DNA of 64,000 nucleotides from positions 1-64,000 of IMG/VR virus record IMGVR_UViG_3300004806_000019. The stretch is one strand, 5' to 3'. The translations under genes and the position numbers were made by a program. The stretch comes from a virus. Below, piece after piece: positions 25,463-30,027 of this stretch (its first letter is position 1; each line of letters opens with the position of its first letter). Below the pieces are notes generated by a model. That model did no database searches and was not told where the DNA came from. It saw nothing but the letters and a program-made list of their open reading frames with translations.

Positions 25463-26704
25463 TTATCCTTTACGGATTGAGTCAACCCATAGATATGCCT
25501 TAGCGATACAATCACCCCATTCGTAAAGCCTCTCCTGACGAATAATCTTCATACGAGGATACCAAGGTGACTTATCGCCAGTAGTAACAAGCCAACGCCA
25601 ATCAGGAACGGCAGGAATAAGAAGGCAAACTGGAATATCCAATGCACCGGCAAGATGAGCAACTCCCGTATCACAAGTGACAAGAGCATCCATGGATTTT
25701 AAAAATGTCGCAGCAGCACTCCACTTGGCTTCAATCAACCCAGATAAATCTGTCACCAAAGCTTGCGCTCCAGCATTCGCTATAGCAGCGGAATGCTTGC
25801 CAACCTGAAAGCTGAACAAATCCCAATCAGGGGAATTAGCTAAAGGAAGAAACTCCTCAAAGAGGATGGACCTCCAGCTATCACGCAAATGACCCGTGCT
25901 TCCCGCCCAACAGATTCCAACATTGAACCCTGTGCGACTCTGAGGCTTGTCCATTTCAGCATAGGTAAGAAGACCAGGATCCGAAGGAAGCGTATCCGGC
26001 ATAATGTCAAAAAGCTTCGGAACACTATGAAGAAGGATCTCTTCATCAACTCCATCAACCGCATATCCCTTTAAGGAAATGTCTCCATATTCTTTATATC
26101 CCTGGAATAAGGAGTACATCGAAGCTGGGACGGAAAATGTAACCTTGCTTGCATGTTCAGCAATCAAAGGAACAAACCGGGCAAACTGAATAGCGTCACC
26201 CGCACCCTGTTCACTGGAAATAAGAATATGCTTTCCCTTCAGATCGTCCGGATATCCGCCAAAAGGTTGAGCAACAAACCTATGATCAATTATATTGATC
26301 CTATGTTCGTACTCATTCCACCCCTCATCCCACTCCCCTAGAAGCATCAGAGAGGCCGAATAATCAATATGAAAGGCCGTATTCTCAGGATTATATAAAA
26401 CAGAGGTTGCAAAAGAATCCCTCGATTCCTCAAACAACCCGATTGCACTCTGCGCTAAACCAAGGATGCTCCAAGCACCCCCAATATTCTGGTTCTTATC
26501 GAGAACCTCAGAAACCATAGAAATGGATTCTTCTGGCTTTCCAACGCGCAAAAGAGTGCTGGCCAAATTTAATTGATAGCTAATCTGACTAGGGTCAATC
26601 GATACAGCACGACGCAGACAAGCCTCTGCCGCATGATGATTGCCTGCATTAATCCGGATAATACCTAGGCTTGCAAGCTCACGGGCATAAATCAAAGGGT
26701 CCAT
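25463..26704 (-). CDS. TPR + GT-B glycosyltransferase (GT9-like, FlmG/FlbA-like architecture)
   Basis: N-terminal TPRs, GWNEYEHR, SEQGAGDAIQFARF, VGICWAGS, VTCDTGVAHLAGAL, DWRW, SPWYP. Confidence 0.88.
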   Translation of the reverse strand: MDPLIYARELASLGIIRINAGNHHAAEACLRRAVSIDPSQISYQLNLASTLLRVGKPEESISMVSEVLDKNQNIGGAWSILGLAQSAIGLFEESRDSFATSVLYNPENTAFHIDYSASLMLLGEWDEGWNEYEHRINIIDHRFVAQPFGGYPDDLKGKHILISSEQGAGDAIQFARFVPLIAEHASKVTFSVPASMYSLFQGYKEYGDISLKGYAVDGVDEEILLHSVPKLFDIMPDTLPSDPGLLTYAEMDKPQSRTGFNVGICWAGSTGHLRDSWRSILFEEFLPLANSPDWDLFSFQVGKHSAAIANAGAQALVTDLSGLIEAKWSAAATFLKSMDALVTCDTGVAHLAGALDIPVCLLIPAVPDWRWLVTTGDKSPWYPRMKIIRQERLYEWGDCIAKAYLWVDSIRKG

Positions 26705-26705
26705 G

Positions 26706-28469
26706 TTATTCCTTCACAGTAAAAGAGATGGGAGATTTCCCACTGATGTAGGAGAACCATGCAGAGGAAAAAACATTCTCCATGAGTTCTCCAAACTTTT
26801 TGATGTTGCAAAGCGGTGAGCTAAGAAGACGATCTCTCATTCCAAACCTTATCGCTCGTAAATAATTTGGATTCTCCGCAAGGGATATAGCCTTTTTGCG
26901 ATATTCAGCAGGAGAGGAAGCAATGAACTCATCAAGCCATATAGACTTTAAATAGGCTGATGAATGGCGGGAGGGGTAAGTGAACTTAGGAAGAGTGATA
27001 ACCGGCAACCCCATCCATAAGCATTCAGTCGTTGTAACCCCTCCTGCATAGGGAAAGCTATCAAGCGCAATGTCAACCTGACCCATTGCCTCTTGATGCT
27101 CCTCTGAAGAGGAATAGCCAAGAAAGGAAATCCTCTCAGGATTAATCCCCCGATCACTGAACATCTGGCGATAACGAGATACAGTGTCAGGACAGTCCAA
27201 AGCAGGAGACTTCATTAGAAGCTTAGACTTCGGAACAGAGGAAAGAATGTCAGACCACAACGTTATGACGTTAGAGCCAATCTTTTTCAGAACATTGAAG
27301 GATCCAAAGGTGATGTACCCATTCCTGTCAAAGGGTAAGGAAGGAAGAGGATCATAATAAGAAGGCTCAAAACATACCGTTGTATGAGGAAGCTTGATCA
27401 GCTTCTCAGTAAAATACTCGTCCAGGCCATCAAGCTCAGTCTTACTGGCAATCAGGTAATCCATTTGAGGGGAACCCGTAGTGCCAGGATACCCAAACCA
27501 AGTCATTTGAATCGGGGCAGGCTTTCTTGCAAAGACCTCGAGTCTATTCCCAGCCGTATACCCGGCGAGATCAACCAGAATATCAATTTCATCCAACATG
27601 ATACGTTTGTGAAGCTCATCGTCATCTAATCCATAAGCAGGAACAAAGGCCCCAACGTTCCTGAATCTCCTTGAGATATGATCCTCAAGTGGTGTTGTTG
27701 AATAGAAAAACAGGCTATAATTCATGTCAGAAAGGTACTCAGCAACCGGAGCAACCGCTAATCCAACAGGGTGCTTTCTAAGGTCGCCAGAGACAAATCC
27801 GATTGTTGGTCTTGTATGCTCCCGTTTCTGATGGAGCGTAATCGGGTAATTCAGATGACGACGGGCGACAAACTCAGACTGAGCAAGGACAAGAACAGGA
27901 TCATCCTGCCGATAAAGTTCTGAGAAGGCGATATTGAAAGAAGGGTTCTTAGCCATAGGGTCATGGCGCCCCGCTTCCGTAAAACACTGAATCGCTTCAT
28001 CAACCCGTCCCTGATCGAGATAAATATTGCCAAGATTGTTCCAGGCACTCGTAAAAAATGGGTTGAGTTCAAGTGCCTTCTTTAGGGAAACTTCCGCATC
28101 TCCAAGCTTGCGAAGGCTCTGAAGCGTAAGCCCAAGGTTGCTGTAAGACTCACTGCTGTTGGCATTCAAATGTATAGCCTCTCTGAAATGACGTTCAGCC
28201 TCCTCATACCTCATAAGAAGATGACAAAGCAGACCGCAATTAATGTTGGAAGGAAGGTTATCTTTGTTGATAAGGATAGAGCGGCGATAGTCCTCAATCG
28301 CCTTCTTGATGATACCCGTCTGATGCTCAATCATGGCAACATGGGCGTAAAGGTCAGACCGTTCAGGAGAGAGGCAGACGGCAGATCTGAATGTATCTGC
28401 CGCTGCTAAATATTCTCTCTTCATAAAATGACGGGTTGCCTTGGCGAAAAGAGTTACAGCATTCACCAT
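26706..28469 (-). CDS. TPR + GT41 protein glycosyltransferase (OGT/SPINDLY-like)
   Basis: About 5 TPRs, IGFVSGDLRKHPVG, DILVDLAGYT, PAPIQMTWFGYPGTTG, TFGSFN..KI, DIALDSFPYAGGVTTTECLWMGLPVITL. Confidence 0.93.
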   Translation of the reverse strand: MVNAVTLFAKATRHFMKREYLAAADTFRSAVCLSPERSDLYAHVAMIEHQTGIIKKAIEDYRRSILINKDNLPSNINCGLLCHLLMRYEEAERHFREAIHLNANSSESYSNLGLTLQSLRKLGDAEVSLKKALELNPFFTSAWNNLGNIYLDQGRVDEAIQCFTEAGRHDPMAKNPSFNIAFSELYRQDDPVLVLAQSEFVARRHLNYPITLHQKREHTRPTIGFVSGDLRKHPVGLAVAPVAEYLSDMNYSLFFYSTTPLEDHISRRFRNVGAFVPAYGLDDDELHKRIMLDEIDILVDLAGYTAGNRLEVFARKPAPIQMTWFGYPGTTGSPQMDYLIASKTELDGLDEYFTEKLIKLPHTTVCFEPSYYDPLPSLPFDRNGYITFGSFNVLKKIGSNVITLWSDILSSVPKSKLLMKSPALDCPDTVSRYRQMFSDRGINPERISFLGYSSSEEHQEAMGQVDIALDSFPYAGGVTTTECLWMGLPVITLPKFTYPSRHSSAYLKSIWLDEFIASSPAEYRKKAISLAENPNYLRAIRFGMRDRLLSSPLCNIKKFGELMENVFSSAWFSYISGKSPISFTVKE

Positions 28470-29092
28470 AGGAGGTACGAGCCTCCGCTAATGAGGAACT
28501 GAACTTCGTGATTGCCGTATAAGAGATCTGTCTCCAGGCTCATCTTCCTTATGCCCGTTGGTGGTCCCATATAAGCAATCACTTCGTCATAAGTCATGCC
28601 GTTCCGAAGGTGCTTGAATTTCTCATCAATCGTTTCAAGCCGCGAGAATGAAGCTTGTTGGACAACTGGCTTCCTGTCCTCCTCTGCCATTTTGTAGATG
28701 AGATCCCTGATCTGGCCAGGATCAAAGGAAACCTGTGCAATGCAGGAAACCCGAAGATGATCCTCCTCCATAGAGGGAACTACAGAAATCGGGGTTATCT
28801 TAACCACAGAGCCAACCCACGACTTCACTCTCTGAAGAAGCTTCTCATCAACCTTGCCGCTGGATTCATTCGTGGTAATCGTCGTAGAAGCCGTAACGAT
28901 TGTCCCTGACGCCTCAAGTGCTTTTCTCGCTGCTTTGGCGAAGCAAGCCGATCTTGCAGCGGAATTGGTGTCAGAATCAGAGGCAATATAGGATGCACTT
29001 TGCATGACTGTTGCCGCCTCAACTGGGACAAATGAGGCAATAAGAGGGGTAATTATCGTAAGAAGTGGAATTAATTTCCTCATAATGGTCAC
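28463..29092 (-). CDS. exported protein with possible C-terminal BamE/SmpA-like motif
   Basis: Signal peptide ending VEA-A; C-terminal LRNGMTYDEVIAYMGPP. Confidence 0.65.
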   Translation of the reverse strand: MTIMRKLIPLLTIITPLIASFVPVEAATVMQSASYIASDSDTNSAARSACFAKAARKALEASGTIVTASTTITTNESSGKVDEKLLQRVKSWVGSVVKITPISVVPSMEEDHLRVSCIAQVSFDPGQIRDLIYKMAEEDRKPVVQQASFSRLETIDEKFKHLRNGMTYDEVIAYMGPPTGIRKMSLETDLLYGNHEVQFLISGGSYLLW

Positions 29093-29685: not shown

Positions 29686-29966
29686 TTAATCCATTCAGTT
29701 TGCTGTCTTGCCCACTCAAGAAGATCACTTTTGCGGTAACTCACATAGTTCCATCTGAACCGGATGTAAGGTGGGCCTCCCCCCGCATTGTTATTGATGG
29801 CCATGTTTGCCAAACGCTTTGTGGAAATTGGACACCCAATTGATTTCAGAAAGACGGTTGCCGCTTTCCGATTGAGCCATTCATCCCCATCCTCAAGAAG
29901 GAGTTTTGACTTCTTCATGTTCTCCCTAAACTCTTCCTTGAGCTTATCGGTTAAAACGCCAGCCAT
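29682..29966 (-). CDS. AlpA/excisionase-type winged-HTH DNA-binding protein
   Basis: WLNRKAA..FL...ISTKRLAN...GGGPPYIR...VSYRKSDLLEW. Confidence 0.75.
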   Translation of the reverse strand: MAGVLTDKLKEEFRENMKKSKLLLEDGDEWLNRKAATVFLKSIGCPISTKRLANMAINNNAGGGPPYIRFRWNYVSYRKSDLLEWARQQTEWIK

Positions 29967-29998
29967 CTTGTAACCTCACTAAGAAACCCATTGGATCA

Positions 29999-30027
29999 AT
30001 CTTATCCCATTGGATTTAGATTATCAA
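29999..30027 (-). promoter_or_regulatory. sigma70-type promoter for the glycosyltransferase cassette, overlapped by motif copy 2
   Basis: Minus strand TTGATA-17 nt-TAAGAT; CCCATTGGAT occurs at 29987 and 30006. Confidence 0.65.

Follow-up and report, generated by a model that had tools for sequence, protein, structure and literature searches.

This phage carries a five-gene operon in a variable slot that splits its conserved head module into a portal side and a GroES side. Our best, still tentative, explanation is that it is a moron-type operon whose pair of glycosyltransferases glycosylates proteins, with virion proteins slightly favored over host flagellin as the target. The operon and the other features of the window (the whole 64,000-nucleotide stretch of viral DNA that was analyzed) are as follows.

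25060..25284, plus strand: small backbone gene after the portal gene, the left border of the slot (ORF; homologue at 5633-5806 in the related locus L147)
25288..25333, minus strand: hairpin, likely a two-way terminator (fold of the 181-nt convergent gap)
25463..26704, minus strand: TPR and distant GT9-like glycosyltransferase, 413 aa (PF01075 just below cut-off)
26706..28469, minus strand: TPR and GT41 glycosyltransferase, 587 aa (PF13844)
28463..29092, minus strand: exported protein, 209 aa (signal peptide, BamE-like C-terminal domain)
29089..29685, minus strand: LPP20-family lipoprotein, 198 aa (PF02169)
29682..29966, minus strand: predicted DNA-binding protein, 94 aa (ORF; first gene of the operon)
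29987..30027, minus strand: candidate promoter region (two -35/-10 pairs and a 19-bp tandem repeat)
30035..30244, plus strand: small backbone gene before the GroES gene, the right border of the slot, divergent from the first operon gene (ORF)
54637..56412, plus strand: sulfotransferase with a fused paralogous GT9-like domain, encoded in the tail-fiber module outside the cassette (Pfam Sulfotransfer_3, Sulfotransfer_1)

The source of the phage is freshwater. Its five minus-strand open reading frames (25463-29966) are as tightly coupled as the earlier note described: from 5' to 3', they are joined by two successive 4-nt overlaps, a 7-nt overlap, and a 1-nt gap, and a hairpin closes the 3' end. 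The 181-nt gap in which the operon converges with the small plus-strand gene after the portal folds at -63.6 kcal/mol (z = -2.46; 3 of 200 shuffles were equally good), and its hairpin likely acts as a bidirectional terminator. Upstream, the TTGATA-17-TAAGAT sequence that had been named as the operon's own promoter is present on the minus strand at 30027..29999, overlapped by a second promoter-like pair, TTGGGA-17-GATAAT. However, a scan of 6 kb found 7 promoter-like sites against 7.1 expected, so that the match alone is at chance level. RNA runs were searched for the sequence, and none contained it. Both -10 boxes lie within the 19-bp tandem repeat (29987-30005 and 30006-30024), each copy of which contains ATCCAATGGG. 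The 10-mer core of this repeat has four exact copies in the window against 0.23 expected, a number reached in 0 of 100 shuffles. The 19-bp repeats are a candidate operator for the helix-turn-helix (HTH) protein encoded by the first gene, which would control the divergent promoter region through them.

The cassette is flanked by portal, GroES-like, scaffold-like, and capsid genes, and the order portal-GroES-scaffold-p203-p207-MCP is kept in related phages. Searching by capsid protein, we found 80 related loci (77-86% identical), of which 60 were testable for the portal-to-GroES gap. This distance is 5188 nt here versus 352-975 nt in 59 of the 60; the exception, L147, has a gap of 3603 nt. The head module is thus interrupted, as previously claimed, by an add-on with its own direction of transcription that is missing from nearly all relatives. 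Because capsids this similar occur in phages that, where testable, are nearly always without the cassette, assembly does not depend on the enzymes. Homologues of the right-border gene lie at 1031-1258 in L146 and at 6556-6777 in L147, and relatives carry unrelated cargo in the slot, such as a cold-shock gene in L147.

No Pfam family matched the 94-aa product of the first gene. Language-model and structural look-alikes suggest that it is HTH_17-like: its ESM Atlas score was 0.93, and it resembled mostly viral clusters annotated as "DNA-binding protein" (TM 0.65 to 0.66). Homologues hold the same slot in the three closest relatives (L146, L147, and L159; 3 of the 80 related loci), followed by the cold-shock gene in L147 and by nothing in L159. 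This distribution marks the HTH gene not as cargo but as a resident of the sub-lineage to which the phage belongs, contrary to its earlier placement as a member of the cassette. The earlier note had also staked its reading on whether the five genes are ever syntenic elsewhere, and here the outcome went partly against that reading. Among 80 GT9-like viral, 63 lipoprotein bacterial, 80 capsid-relative, and 80 GT41 viral loci, none carried two or more cassette families except for one bacterial GT41/GT9-like tandem. Judged by synteny, the five genes are a composite and not a conserved unit.

The assignment of the GT41 enzyme as OGT/SPINDLY-like was upheld. The 587-aa protein matched PF13844 at 181 bits (cut-off, 25; E = 3.4e-53), and among PDB entries it matched SPINDLY (7y4i; E = 1.4e-95) and human OGT (E = 4e-84). 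Like these members of CAZy family GT41, it has a TPR array followed by the GT41 domain, although it is far shorter (about 190 residues of TPR) and is encoded by a tailed phage. Residues H233, N392, K396, H458, and Y474 align to SPINDLY (SPY) H495, N661, K665, H728, and Y744, while SPY S496 is replaced by Pro and SPY T748 by Val. By this alignment, the enzyme retains the Lys and His required for catalysis along with the other active-site His and Asn. At the position that sets donor size it has Tyr, as SPINDLY does, which argues that the sugar is smaller than GlcNAc. The second enzyme is more distant from known families. It scored 21.7 bits against PF01075 (GT9), below the cut-off of 22; when the PDB was searched with its family profile, GT9 heptosyltransferases were the sole matches (E = 0.005), and the similarity was limited to some 35 residues in the nucleotide-sugar motif. 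By inspection, neither enzyme has a signal peptide, consistent with the earlier prediction that both TPR-glycosyltransferases are cytoplasmic.

The GT9-like family is present in at least 537 viral contigs and in 131 of 151 Rhodospirillales genomes. At 32 of 77 viral loci, the GT9-like gene lies within four genes of one encoding a portal, capsid, scaffold, terminase, or DUF2213 protein; this tally lacks a matched control, and related phages are counted in it repeatedly. Six loci share the order portal, FkbM methyltransferase, TPR-GT9, scaffold, and a gene of cluster c11, with a small ORF before the scaffold gene in five of them; the enzymes are encoded on the same strand as portal and scaffold. 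The cluster c11 gene encodes an SU10-type capsid protein in L027, the sole locus checked by Pfam, and L027 and L047 have start/stop overlaps within these head operons. In T4-like loci (n = 15), a lone opposite-strand GT9-like copy sits beside or near gp23. Within the window, the sulfotransferase fusion protein is 24% identical to the cassette GT9-like enzyme over 341 aligned positions (BLASTP, E = 4e-16). In a quick tree whose bacterial rows were 20 Rhodospirillales regions and one Paramagnetospirillum caucaseum locus, the window enzyme grouped with viral and metagenome sequences, those of the head-operon groups among them, in a clade of 38 rows (SH-aLRT = 93), apart from the flagellin-linked bacterial copies. 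The head operons, the tail-fiber paralogue, and the tree all run against the earlier view that the cassette acts on the host envelope rather than decorating the virion. Phage structural proteins are slightly more likely than host flagellin to be the target. There is a precedent in mycobacteriophages, likened here by description only, where capsid and tail-tube subunits receive glycans from the phages' own glycosyltransferases (Freeman et al. 2023, as cited in PMC12619734). Against a virion target, the operon runs opposite to the head genes, and its layout predicts that the enzymes are cotranscribed with the envelope proteins.

The sole side-by-side GT41/GT9-like pair among the loci examined also counts against a virion target, since it lies in a bacterial flagellin-Maf operon. 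It speaks for a reading along the lines of the earlier note, in which the enzymes glycosylate nascent host flagellin or another host surface protein and the LPP20-fold pair works at the envelope or motor; the receptor would be masked or motility changed, and rivals excluded or progeny spared. We regard this as possible but rather doubtful. The flagellin idea does have a comparative hook. In P. caucaseum SO-1 (L319), genes for flagellin, Maf, TPR-GT41, and TPR-GT9-like proteins abut one another on one strand, and the order of the two enzymes matches that of the phage. In Magnetospirillum sp. UT-4, a flagellin gene has a GT41 gene on either side, the product of one being 39% identical in the catalytic part. 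However, the flagellin-linked copies are only remotely related (GT41, 25-26% identical; GT9-like, 30%) and do not group with the phage enzyme; the SO-1 locus is moreover chromosomal and has neither a lipoprotein pair nor an HTH gene. Flagellin occurs in 2 of the 20 top Rhodospirillales GT9-like regions, a point against the virion, but the other 18 lack it, and none of the 20 has Maf or GT41. FlmG of Caulobacter offers a mechanistic precedent: as described in PMC7591256 and bioRxiv 10.1101/2023.12.03.569772, it is cytoplasmic, with an N-terminal TPR domain that selects the substrate, flagellin being bound through it (PMC7591256), and then a C-terminal GT-B-type transferase. A difference is that FlmG is described in these sources as confined to Caulobacterales and as transferring pseudaminic or legionaminic acid. 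That the cassette is dispensable for the virion fits a host target, as does the finding that the closest lipoprotein homologues in genomes are also from Paramagnetospirillum and Magnetospirillum. No integrase or resolvase was found when looked for in the phage, so lysogenic conversion is not indicated, and the host-conversion part of the earlier interpretation is to that extent unsupported; modifying newly made flagellin would be of little use in a short lytic cycle. Taken whole, the observation in the earlier note was confirmed, and its interpretation was partly supported.

Two further readings carry less weight. The enzymes may act on a glycan or lipid acceptor (lipopolysaccharide [LPS] core or capsule) in a seroconversion-like surface change, or the cargo genes may be an unrelated pile without joint function; we consider this unlikely. 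Among relatives of the GT9-like domain, structures have been solved only for LPS heptosyltransferases, some close family members adjoin other glycosyltransferases (cluster c12), and the slot does gather unrelated cargo in relatives. Yet that heptosyltransferase similarity is confined to the short nucleotide-sugar motif, both enzymes bear TPR protein-binding domains, and every solved GT41 enzyme among the PDB matches, and as covered in PMC9715652, has protein substrates. Less probable still, and in our judgment quite improbable, is a self-contained secreted-glycoprotein module in which the lipoprotein or the exported protein would receive sugars from the co-encoded cytoplasmic enzymes prior to its export. 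TibC and AAH glycosylate their autotransporters before export. Glycosylation of surface proteins before their export is known from two enzyme families, GT41 and GT9-like; HMW1C glycosylates HMW1 in this way according to PMC9715652. The four cargo genes are translationally coupled by their overlap layout, and 8 of the 14 residues in one stretch of the exported protein, ASGTIVTASTTITT, are Ser or Thr, though homologues are less rich in these residues there. But the GT41 match to the HMW1C-type NCBIfam model was 28 bits against a cut-off of 1000, and neither enzyme gene occurs at any of the 63 bacterial lipoprotein loci. Furthermore, homologues of the enzyme pair that are 49% and 54% identical each lie on a 28,542-bp contig, whereas none of the lipoprotein homologues listed, and none of six homologues of the 209-aa protein (EXP209) or the lipoprotein that were looked up, lies on a contig of this length; the enzyme pair thus seems to travel without the envelope pair.

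By inspection of the translations, both envelope proteins carry export signals, in agreement with the earlier note: the lipoprotein has lipobox LTAC with Ser at +2, and the 209-aa protein has a signal peptide (VEA|A). The lipoprotein passes the Pfam LPP20 cut-off (PF02169, 29.5 bits versus 25.9) but had no match in NCBIfam, and its 37 homologues, mostly of about 204 aa, conserve the Cys and a PKPGTP motif. LPP20, FlgP, and FlgT share one fold according to PMC12222027, and a FlgT_N-bearing cluster is a weak structural neighbor of the 209-aa protein (ESM Atlas, TM 0.44; a lead only), both of which would suit a flagellar role. However, the bacterial homologues of the lipoprotein gene adjoin proteases and not flagellar genes. 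At the 50 of 63 loci where the ORF caller placed the gene, its neighbors encode a DUF4384 protein (38), a TPR lipoprotein (33), a TPR-trypsin protease (30), a caspase-like protein (27), and a 150-aa protein (17), all with a signal peptide or lipobox by inspection. For the 209-aa protein, Pfam matched no family (BamE scored only 12.7 bits), and BamE was matched in 6 of 43 members of its family, for which 48 representatives were found. Its N-domain has two conserved Cys and is weakly like LPP20 and DUF4384 proteins; hhalign against the N-domain of bacterial DUF4384 proteins (probability 82.8, E = 9e-6) suggests a weak kinship. Both envelope proteins thus appear to have relatives among the products of a conserved proteobacterial operon that encodes exported proteins. 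That operon comprises a TPR-trypsin-like protease, a DUF4384 protein, a TPR lipoprotein, and caspase-like proteases.

In the reading we prefer, the four genes behind the HTH gene are lineage-specific cargo in two pairs, one of envelope proteins and one of cytoplasmic TPR-glycosyltransferases. The TPR domains would pick protein substrates on which the enzyme pair builds an O-linked glycan. Candidate virion targets would be tail proteins or the Thr-rich loop of the 207-aa head-module protein, which has a five-residue TATAT insertion missing from the three closest cassette-less relatives (a single observation). The envelope pair, an outer-membrane LPP20-type lipoprotein and a periplasmic LPP20-like/BamE-like protein, would be exported during infection and may then join, imitate, or block the host envelope assembly encoded by the proteobacterial operon. 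The phage lipoproteins Llp of T5 and Cor reportedly block receptors. Like them and like phage morons, by description only, the cassette consists of extra genes with their own signals in a late region, including a lipoprotein, in a phage where no integrase was found; here, though, the lipoprotein is of the LPP20 family, with bacterial homologues in a protease operon. The action of the envelope pair would resemble the exclusion of rivals or protection of progeny by such phage lipoproteins.

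The earlier note had described five tightly coupled minus-strand genes set within the head module, and both parts of that description held. Five open reading frames occupy 25463-29966 and are joined by a 4-nt overlap, a second 4-nt overlap, a 7-nt overlap, and a 1-nt gap. On their left lies the portal gene (phrog_1216), and on their right lie a GroES-like gene, a scaffold-like gene, two small head-module genes, and the capsid gene (Phage_capsid_4). The features discussed here are as follows.

7210-7219, 16604-16613, 29987-29996, and 30006-30015: exact copies of the 10-mer ATCCAATGGG
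25288-25333: strong hairpin at the 3' end of the cassette
25463-26704, minus strand: TPR-GT9-like enzyme, 413 aa
26706-28469, minus strand: TPR-GT41 enzyme, 587 aa
28463-29092, minus strand: exported protein, 209 aa
29089-29685, minus strand: lipoprotein, 198 aa
29682-29966, minus strand: helix-turn-helix (HTH) protein, 94 aa
32563-33186: head-module protein p207, 207 aa
54637-56412, plus strand: sulfotransferase fusion in the tail-fibre module

The claim that the cassette interrupts the order of the head genes was confirmed by synteny. We found at least 599 relatives of the capsid protein in IMG/VR, the best 80 of which were 77-86% identical, and measured portal-GroES spacing in the 60 loci where both genes were matched. 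The order portal-GroES-scaffold-p203-p207-capsid was kept across these 60 loci. The two genes were 352-975 nt apart in 59 of 60 relatives (median, 574 nt), compared with 5188 nt here, and the distance in the related locus L147 was 3603 nt. With no room for the cassette in 59 of 60 loci, it has the moron trait of being absent at the same site in close relatives. Hidden Markov models of the lipoprotein and the exported protein matched none of 161 viral loci, and neither a GT41 nor a GT9-like gene was present anywhere in the records of five relatives (19-77% complete).

The HTH gene, which had been counted as a member of the cassette, turned out to be a resident gene rather than cargo. Of the 80 loci searched with a profile of the 94-aa protein, only three (L146, L147, and L159) have a homologue on the minus strand in this slot, and it is in these three that the capsid is most similar. 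Behind the homologue, L159 has no cargo, and in L146 there may be a gene for a small lipoprotein ahead of the contig end. In the portal-GroES slot of L147 (3303-6402), the minus strand carries the HTH homologue and then a cold-shock protein gene, and there are five extra plus-strand genes. Because the HTH homologues precede nothing, a cold-shock gene, or a possible lipoprotein gene, we regard the slot as a site for cargo with a resident regulator gene at its head. The DNA between the HTH gene and the small GroES-side gene showed no conservation among the four phages. No Pfam family matches the 94-aa protein, HTH_17/excisionase included. Its look-alikes in the ESM Atlas are viral clusters labeled "DNA-binding protein" (score, 0.93; TM, 0.65-0.66), with HTH_17 clusters nearby. 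The four genes behind the HTH gene are lineage-specific. The overall picture, of an accessory operon that is composite and occupies a cargo slot whose HTH gene is resident, is well supported.

The promoter claim stood in part. The sequence TTGATA-17-TAAGAT is present, but such matches occur at chance frequency (7 found versus 7.1 expected), and both candidate -10 boxes fall within a 19-bp tandem repeat. The 10-mer ATCCAATGGG has four exact copies in the window versus 0.23 expected. Two of these bracket the cassette's -10 box, and the fourth copy (16604) lies 18 nt upstream of a start codon at 16631. The 10-mer may be a shared operator. As for the moron trait of an own promoter and terminator, the cassette combines this chance-level site with a repeat-bearing divergent region and the 3' hairpin. 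No flanking direct repeats that could be insertion scars were found around it.

The window covers the first 64 kb of an IMG/VR record of 84,223 bp that CheckV rates as complete, and a domain search of the full genome detected no tyrosine integrase or serine recombinase. The record comes from freshwater metagenomes. At least half of its sampled words were present in nine DNA runs, and the same search returned no RNA run with sequence of this phage. A 12.5-kb query had no near-identity match among INPHARED phages. Identical protein sequences occur on up to eight contigs, the longest of which (89,399 bp) exceeds this record. Contigs from four runs comprised low-depth fragments of the same phage together with capsid pieces of many relatives, and none bridged the slot. 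Identical pieces of the cassette were present in one 2020 run. Over 33300-34100, capsid-gene pieces of many related phages reached depths in the hundreds in lake metagenomes from 2017 and 2020, from which we conclude that the capsid lineage is abundant.

The larger enzyme belongs to GT41 (PF13844, 181.2 bits versus a cut-off of 25, with two stretches recovered in a repeat search) and aligns with SPINDLY (SPY; E = 1.4e-95) and human OGT (E = 4e-84). Residues H233, N392, K396, H458, and Y474 align with SPY H495, N661, K665, H728, and Y744, whereas SPY S496 and T748 are replaced by Pro and Val. The pair at SPY K665 and H495 (K396 and H233) is invariant across six homologues, and, in the SPY study, mutating either residue abolished activity (PMC9715652). 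The O-GlcNAc-type donor site has a small residue at the SPY Y744 position (Cys in human OGT), but the phage enzyme has Tyr474 there, as do SPY, XcOGT, and TtOGT. Judged by this alignment and the same study (PMC9715652), the Tyr argues against a UDP-GlcNAc donor, and because Tyr474 fills that position "O-GlcNAc transferase" is an unsafe name for the protein. An HMW1C-type N-glycosyltransferase is not indicated either (NF049992 of NCBIfam, 28.4 bits versus a cut-off of 1000).

The best relative of the GT41 enzyme is 49% identical, and all others are bacterial TPR-GT41 proteins at 40% or less. In IMG/VR, 165 contigs carry a GT41 gene, and many of these are labeled as giant-virus bins (GVMAG); the best identity to the phage enzyme is 39% (L228-L307), and among the best 80 of the 165, no other cassette family lies nearby. 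A single-protein scan of IMG/VR returned no match with GT41 and one distant locus (L002) with the portal protein. In INPHARED, the sole tblastn match to GT41 was a TPR region in an Altiarchaeum virus. Among the papers listed in a limited literature search, none dealt with a phage-encoded GT41 enzyme.

The smaller enzyme falls just below the cut-off for PF01075 (21.7 versus 22 bits); its relatives in a viral head operon (L027, 31 bits) and in a bacterium (L319, 22.4 bits) exceed it. Because TPR matches dominate a search of PDB with the full-length profile, we used the C-terminal domains alone. A profile of 18 of these matched only lipopolysaccharide heptosyltransferases (WaaC and WaaF), at the nucleotide-sugar motif (E = 0.005-0.03). 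The similarity covers some 35-50 residues rather than a whole GT-B fold. Within this phage, the enzyme is a paralogue of the C-terminal half of the sulfotransferase fusion (24% identity, E = 4e-16). The family, which has no PHROG match, is found on at least 537 IMG/VR viral contigs. Of 151 Rhodospirillales genomes, 131 have it, with a maximum of 12 copies per genome.

Viral members of the GT9-like family often sit beside structural genes. A head or packaging gene was at most four genes away in 32 of 77 viral loci, a tally made without matched controls and in which related phages count more than once. Six loci (L027, L040, L041, L044, L047, and L073) share the series portal (phrog_1216), FkbM methyltransferase, TPR-GT9, scaffold, and a gene of cluster c11, with a small ORF between TPR-GT9 and scaffold in five of them. 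In all six, the enzyme genes face the same way as portal and scaffold, and junctions overlap, including with the portal gene, in L027 and L047. In L027 (head operon at 1322-7634), the sole locus so tested, Pfam identifies the c11 product as an SU10-type capsid protein. It is unrelated to the capsid protein of this phage by BLASTP. In fifteen T4-like loci (L050, L051, L063, L074, L079, and ten more), a solitary GT9-like gene (382 aa) lies on the opposite strand, next to the gp23 capsid gene or in its vicinity, and in 11 of the 15 a sialyltransferase-like gene is close to it. In a quick tree with SH-aLRT support only, the window enzyme groups with relatives of 54-55% identity (99), and these nest in a 38-row viral and metagenome clade (93) that includes the head-operon groups.

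Bacteria provide a different context. GT41 genes lie 4-7 kb from a flagellin gene in two of five genomes that have a lipoprotein homologue. In Paramagnetospirillum caucaseum SO-1 (L319, 3559-10172), genes for a flagellin (Flagellin_N and _C), a Maf protein (three Maf domains), a TPR-GT41 (39 bits), and a TPR-GT9-like protein (22.4 bits) form one co-oriented, abutting string. The arrangement resembles a flagellin glycosylation island that has two additional transferases. It is the sole GT41/GT9-like adjacency among the sequences compared. The 49% GT41 homologue and a 54% GT9-like homologue each lie on a single 28,542-bp contig, and we infer that they co-occur. Among 20 regions around the best Rhodospirillales GT9-like matches, hand-picked from the matches listed and from long contigs only, two had a flagellin gene and none had a Maf or GT41 catalytic domain. 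The flagellin-linked bacterial copies do not group with the phage GT9-like enzyme in the quick tree (SH-aLRT only).

We tentatively place the target of the enzyme pair among virion proteins, at somewhat less than even probability. In favor are the position of the GT9-like enzyme in the viral clade, its relatives in head operons, its paralogue in the tail-fibre module, and a Thr-rich insertion in p207. This insertion is a five-residue TATAT segment that creates the Thr-rich loop VTTAGTTATATGPT, and it is missing from the three closest cassette-less relatives. No one candidate substrate stands out among Ser/Thr-rich segments. Flagellin or another host protein is a less probable target. That reading draws on the bacterial GT41/GT9-like tandem beside flagellin and Maf, on the predicted co-transcription of the enzymes with envelope proteins, and on the fact that relatives' virions manage without the cassette. 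It also has a precedent in FlmG, the TPR flagellin glycosyltransferase of Caulobacter (PMC7591256); the likeness of the phage enzymes to the FlmG class would lie in architecture and in the neighborhood of distant homologues. Glycosylation of the exported pair by the cassette's own enzymes and non-protein acceptors are minor alternatives to a virion target.

The lipoprotein belongs to LPP20 (PF02169, 29.5 bits versus a cut-off of 25.9) and has a lipobox; among 16 sequences, at least 90% share its Cys. Its relatives are 26-40% identical and mostly about 204 aa long, and its 63 genome loci are foremost in Paramagnetospirillum, Magnetospirillum, and Thalassospiraceae, with many in Burkholderiales. 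Neighborhoods were counted in the 50 of 63 loci (L083-L145) where the ORF caller placed the gene. The recurrent string runs from a TPR-trypsin-like protease (30/50 loci) through a DUF4384 protein (38/50), a TPR lipoprotein (33/50), the LPP20 lipoprotein, and a 150-aa protein (17/50) to caspase-domain proteins (27/50), and every protein in it begins with a signal peptide or lipobox. Examples are found in L085 (4167-12120) and L099 (5700-10623), and the operon is present three times in P. caucaseum. With PADLOC, the operon yielded nothing beyond generic protease-domain matches and the cassette proteins yielded no match, and none of the papers listed in a limited DUF4384/LPP20 literature search dealt with the operon. 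At least one component of this operon, the lipoprotein, seems to have been borrowed by the phage.

The 209-aa exported protein has 48 representatives in a library of 1.84 billion proteins and two conserved Cys. It scores below the BamE cut-off (PF04355, 12.7 versus 23.2 bits), and a BamE-like C-terminal domain is matched by 6 of 43 family members (E up to 0.01). Its N-terminal domain weakly resembles that of the DUF4384 proteins (hhalign probability, 82.8; E = 9e-6), and a FlgT_N-bearing cluster is a weak structural neighbor (TM, 0.44). Lpp20, FlgP, and FlgT have a common fold (PMC12222027). The lipoprotein as a FlgP orthologue was dropped, since it has no NCBIfam match and its homologues occupy non-flagellar neighborhoods. 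A FlgP/FlgT fold kinship of the envelope pair offers leads only. If such leads held, the four cargo genes could form one flagellum-directed weapon: the GT41-then-GT9 tandem would recode the sugar coat of new host flagellin, and the two envelope proteins would act at the outer-membrane side of the motor, shutting out flagellum-dependent rivals or keeping progeny off debris. We consider this improbable.

To our knowledge, hardly any work has addressed protein glycosylation by phages of Gram-negative bacteria. If enzymes of the GT9-like family glycosylate virions, unexamined sugar coats would be present across a large class of aquatic phages; if the pair acts on flagellin, the phage would carry a copy of a bacterial flagellin-glycosylation tandem and possibly a new exclusion route. 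The lipoprotein, for its part, leads to a conserved proteobacterial operon, so far undescribed, whose exported proteases are of trypsin-like and caspase-like types. Finally, the different cargo in sister phages makes the slot behind the small HTH gene a natural site in which to search for new accessory genes.
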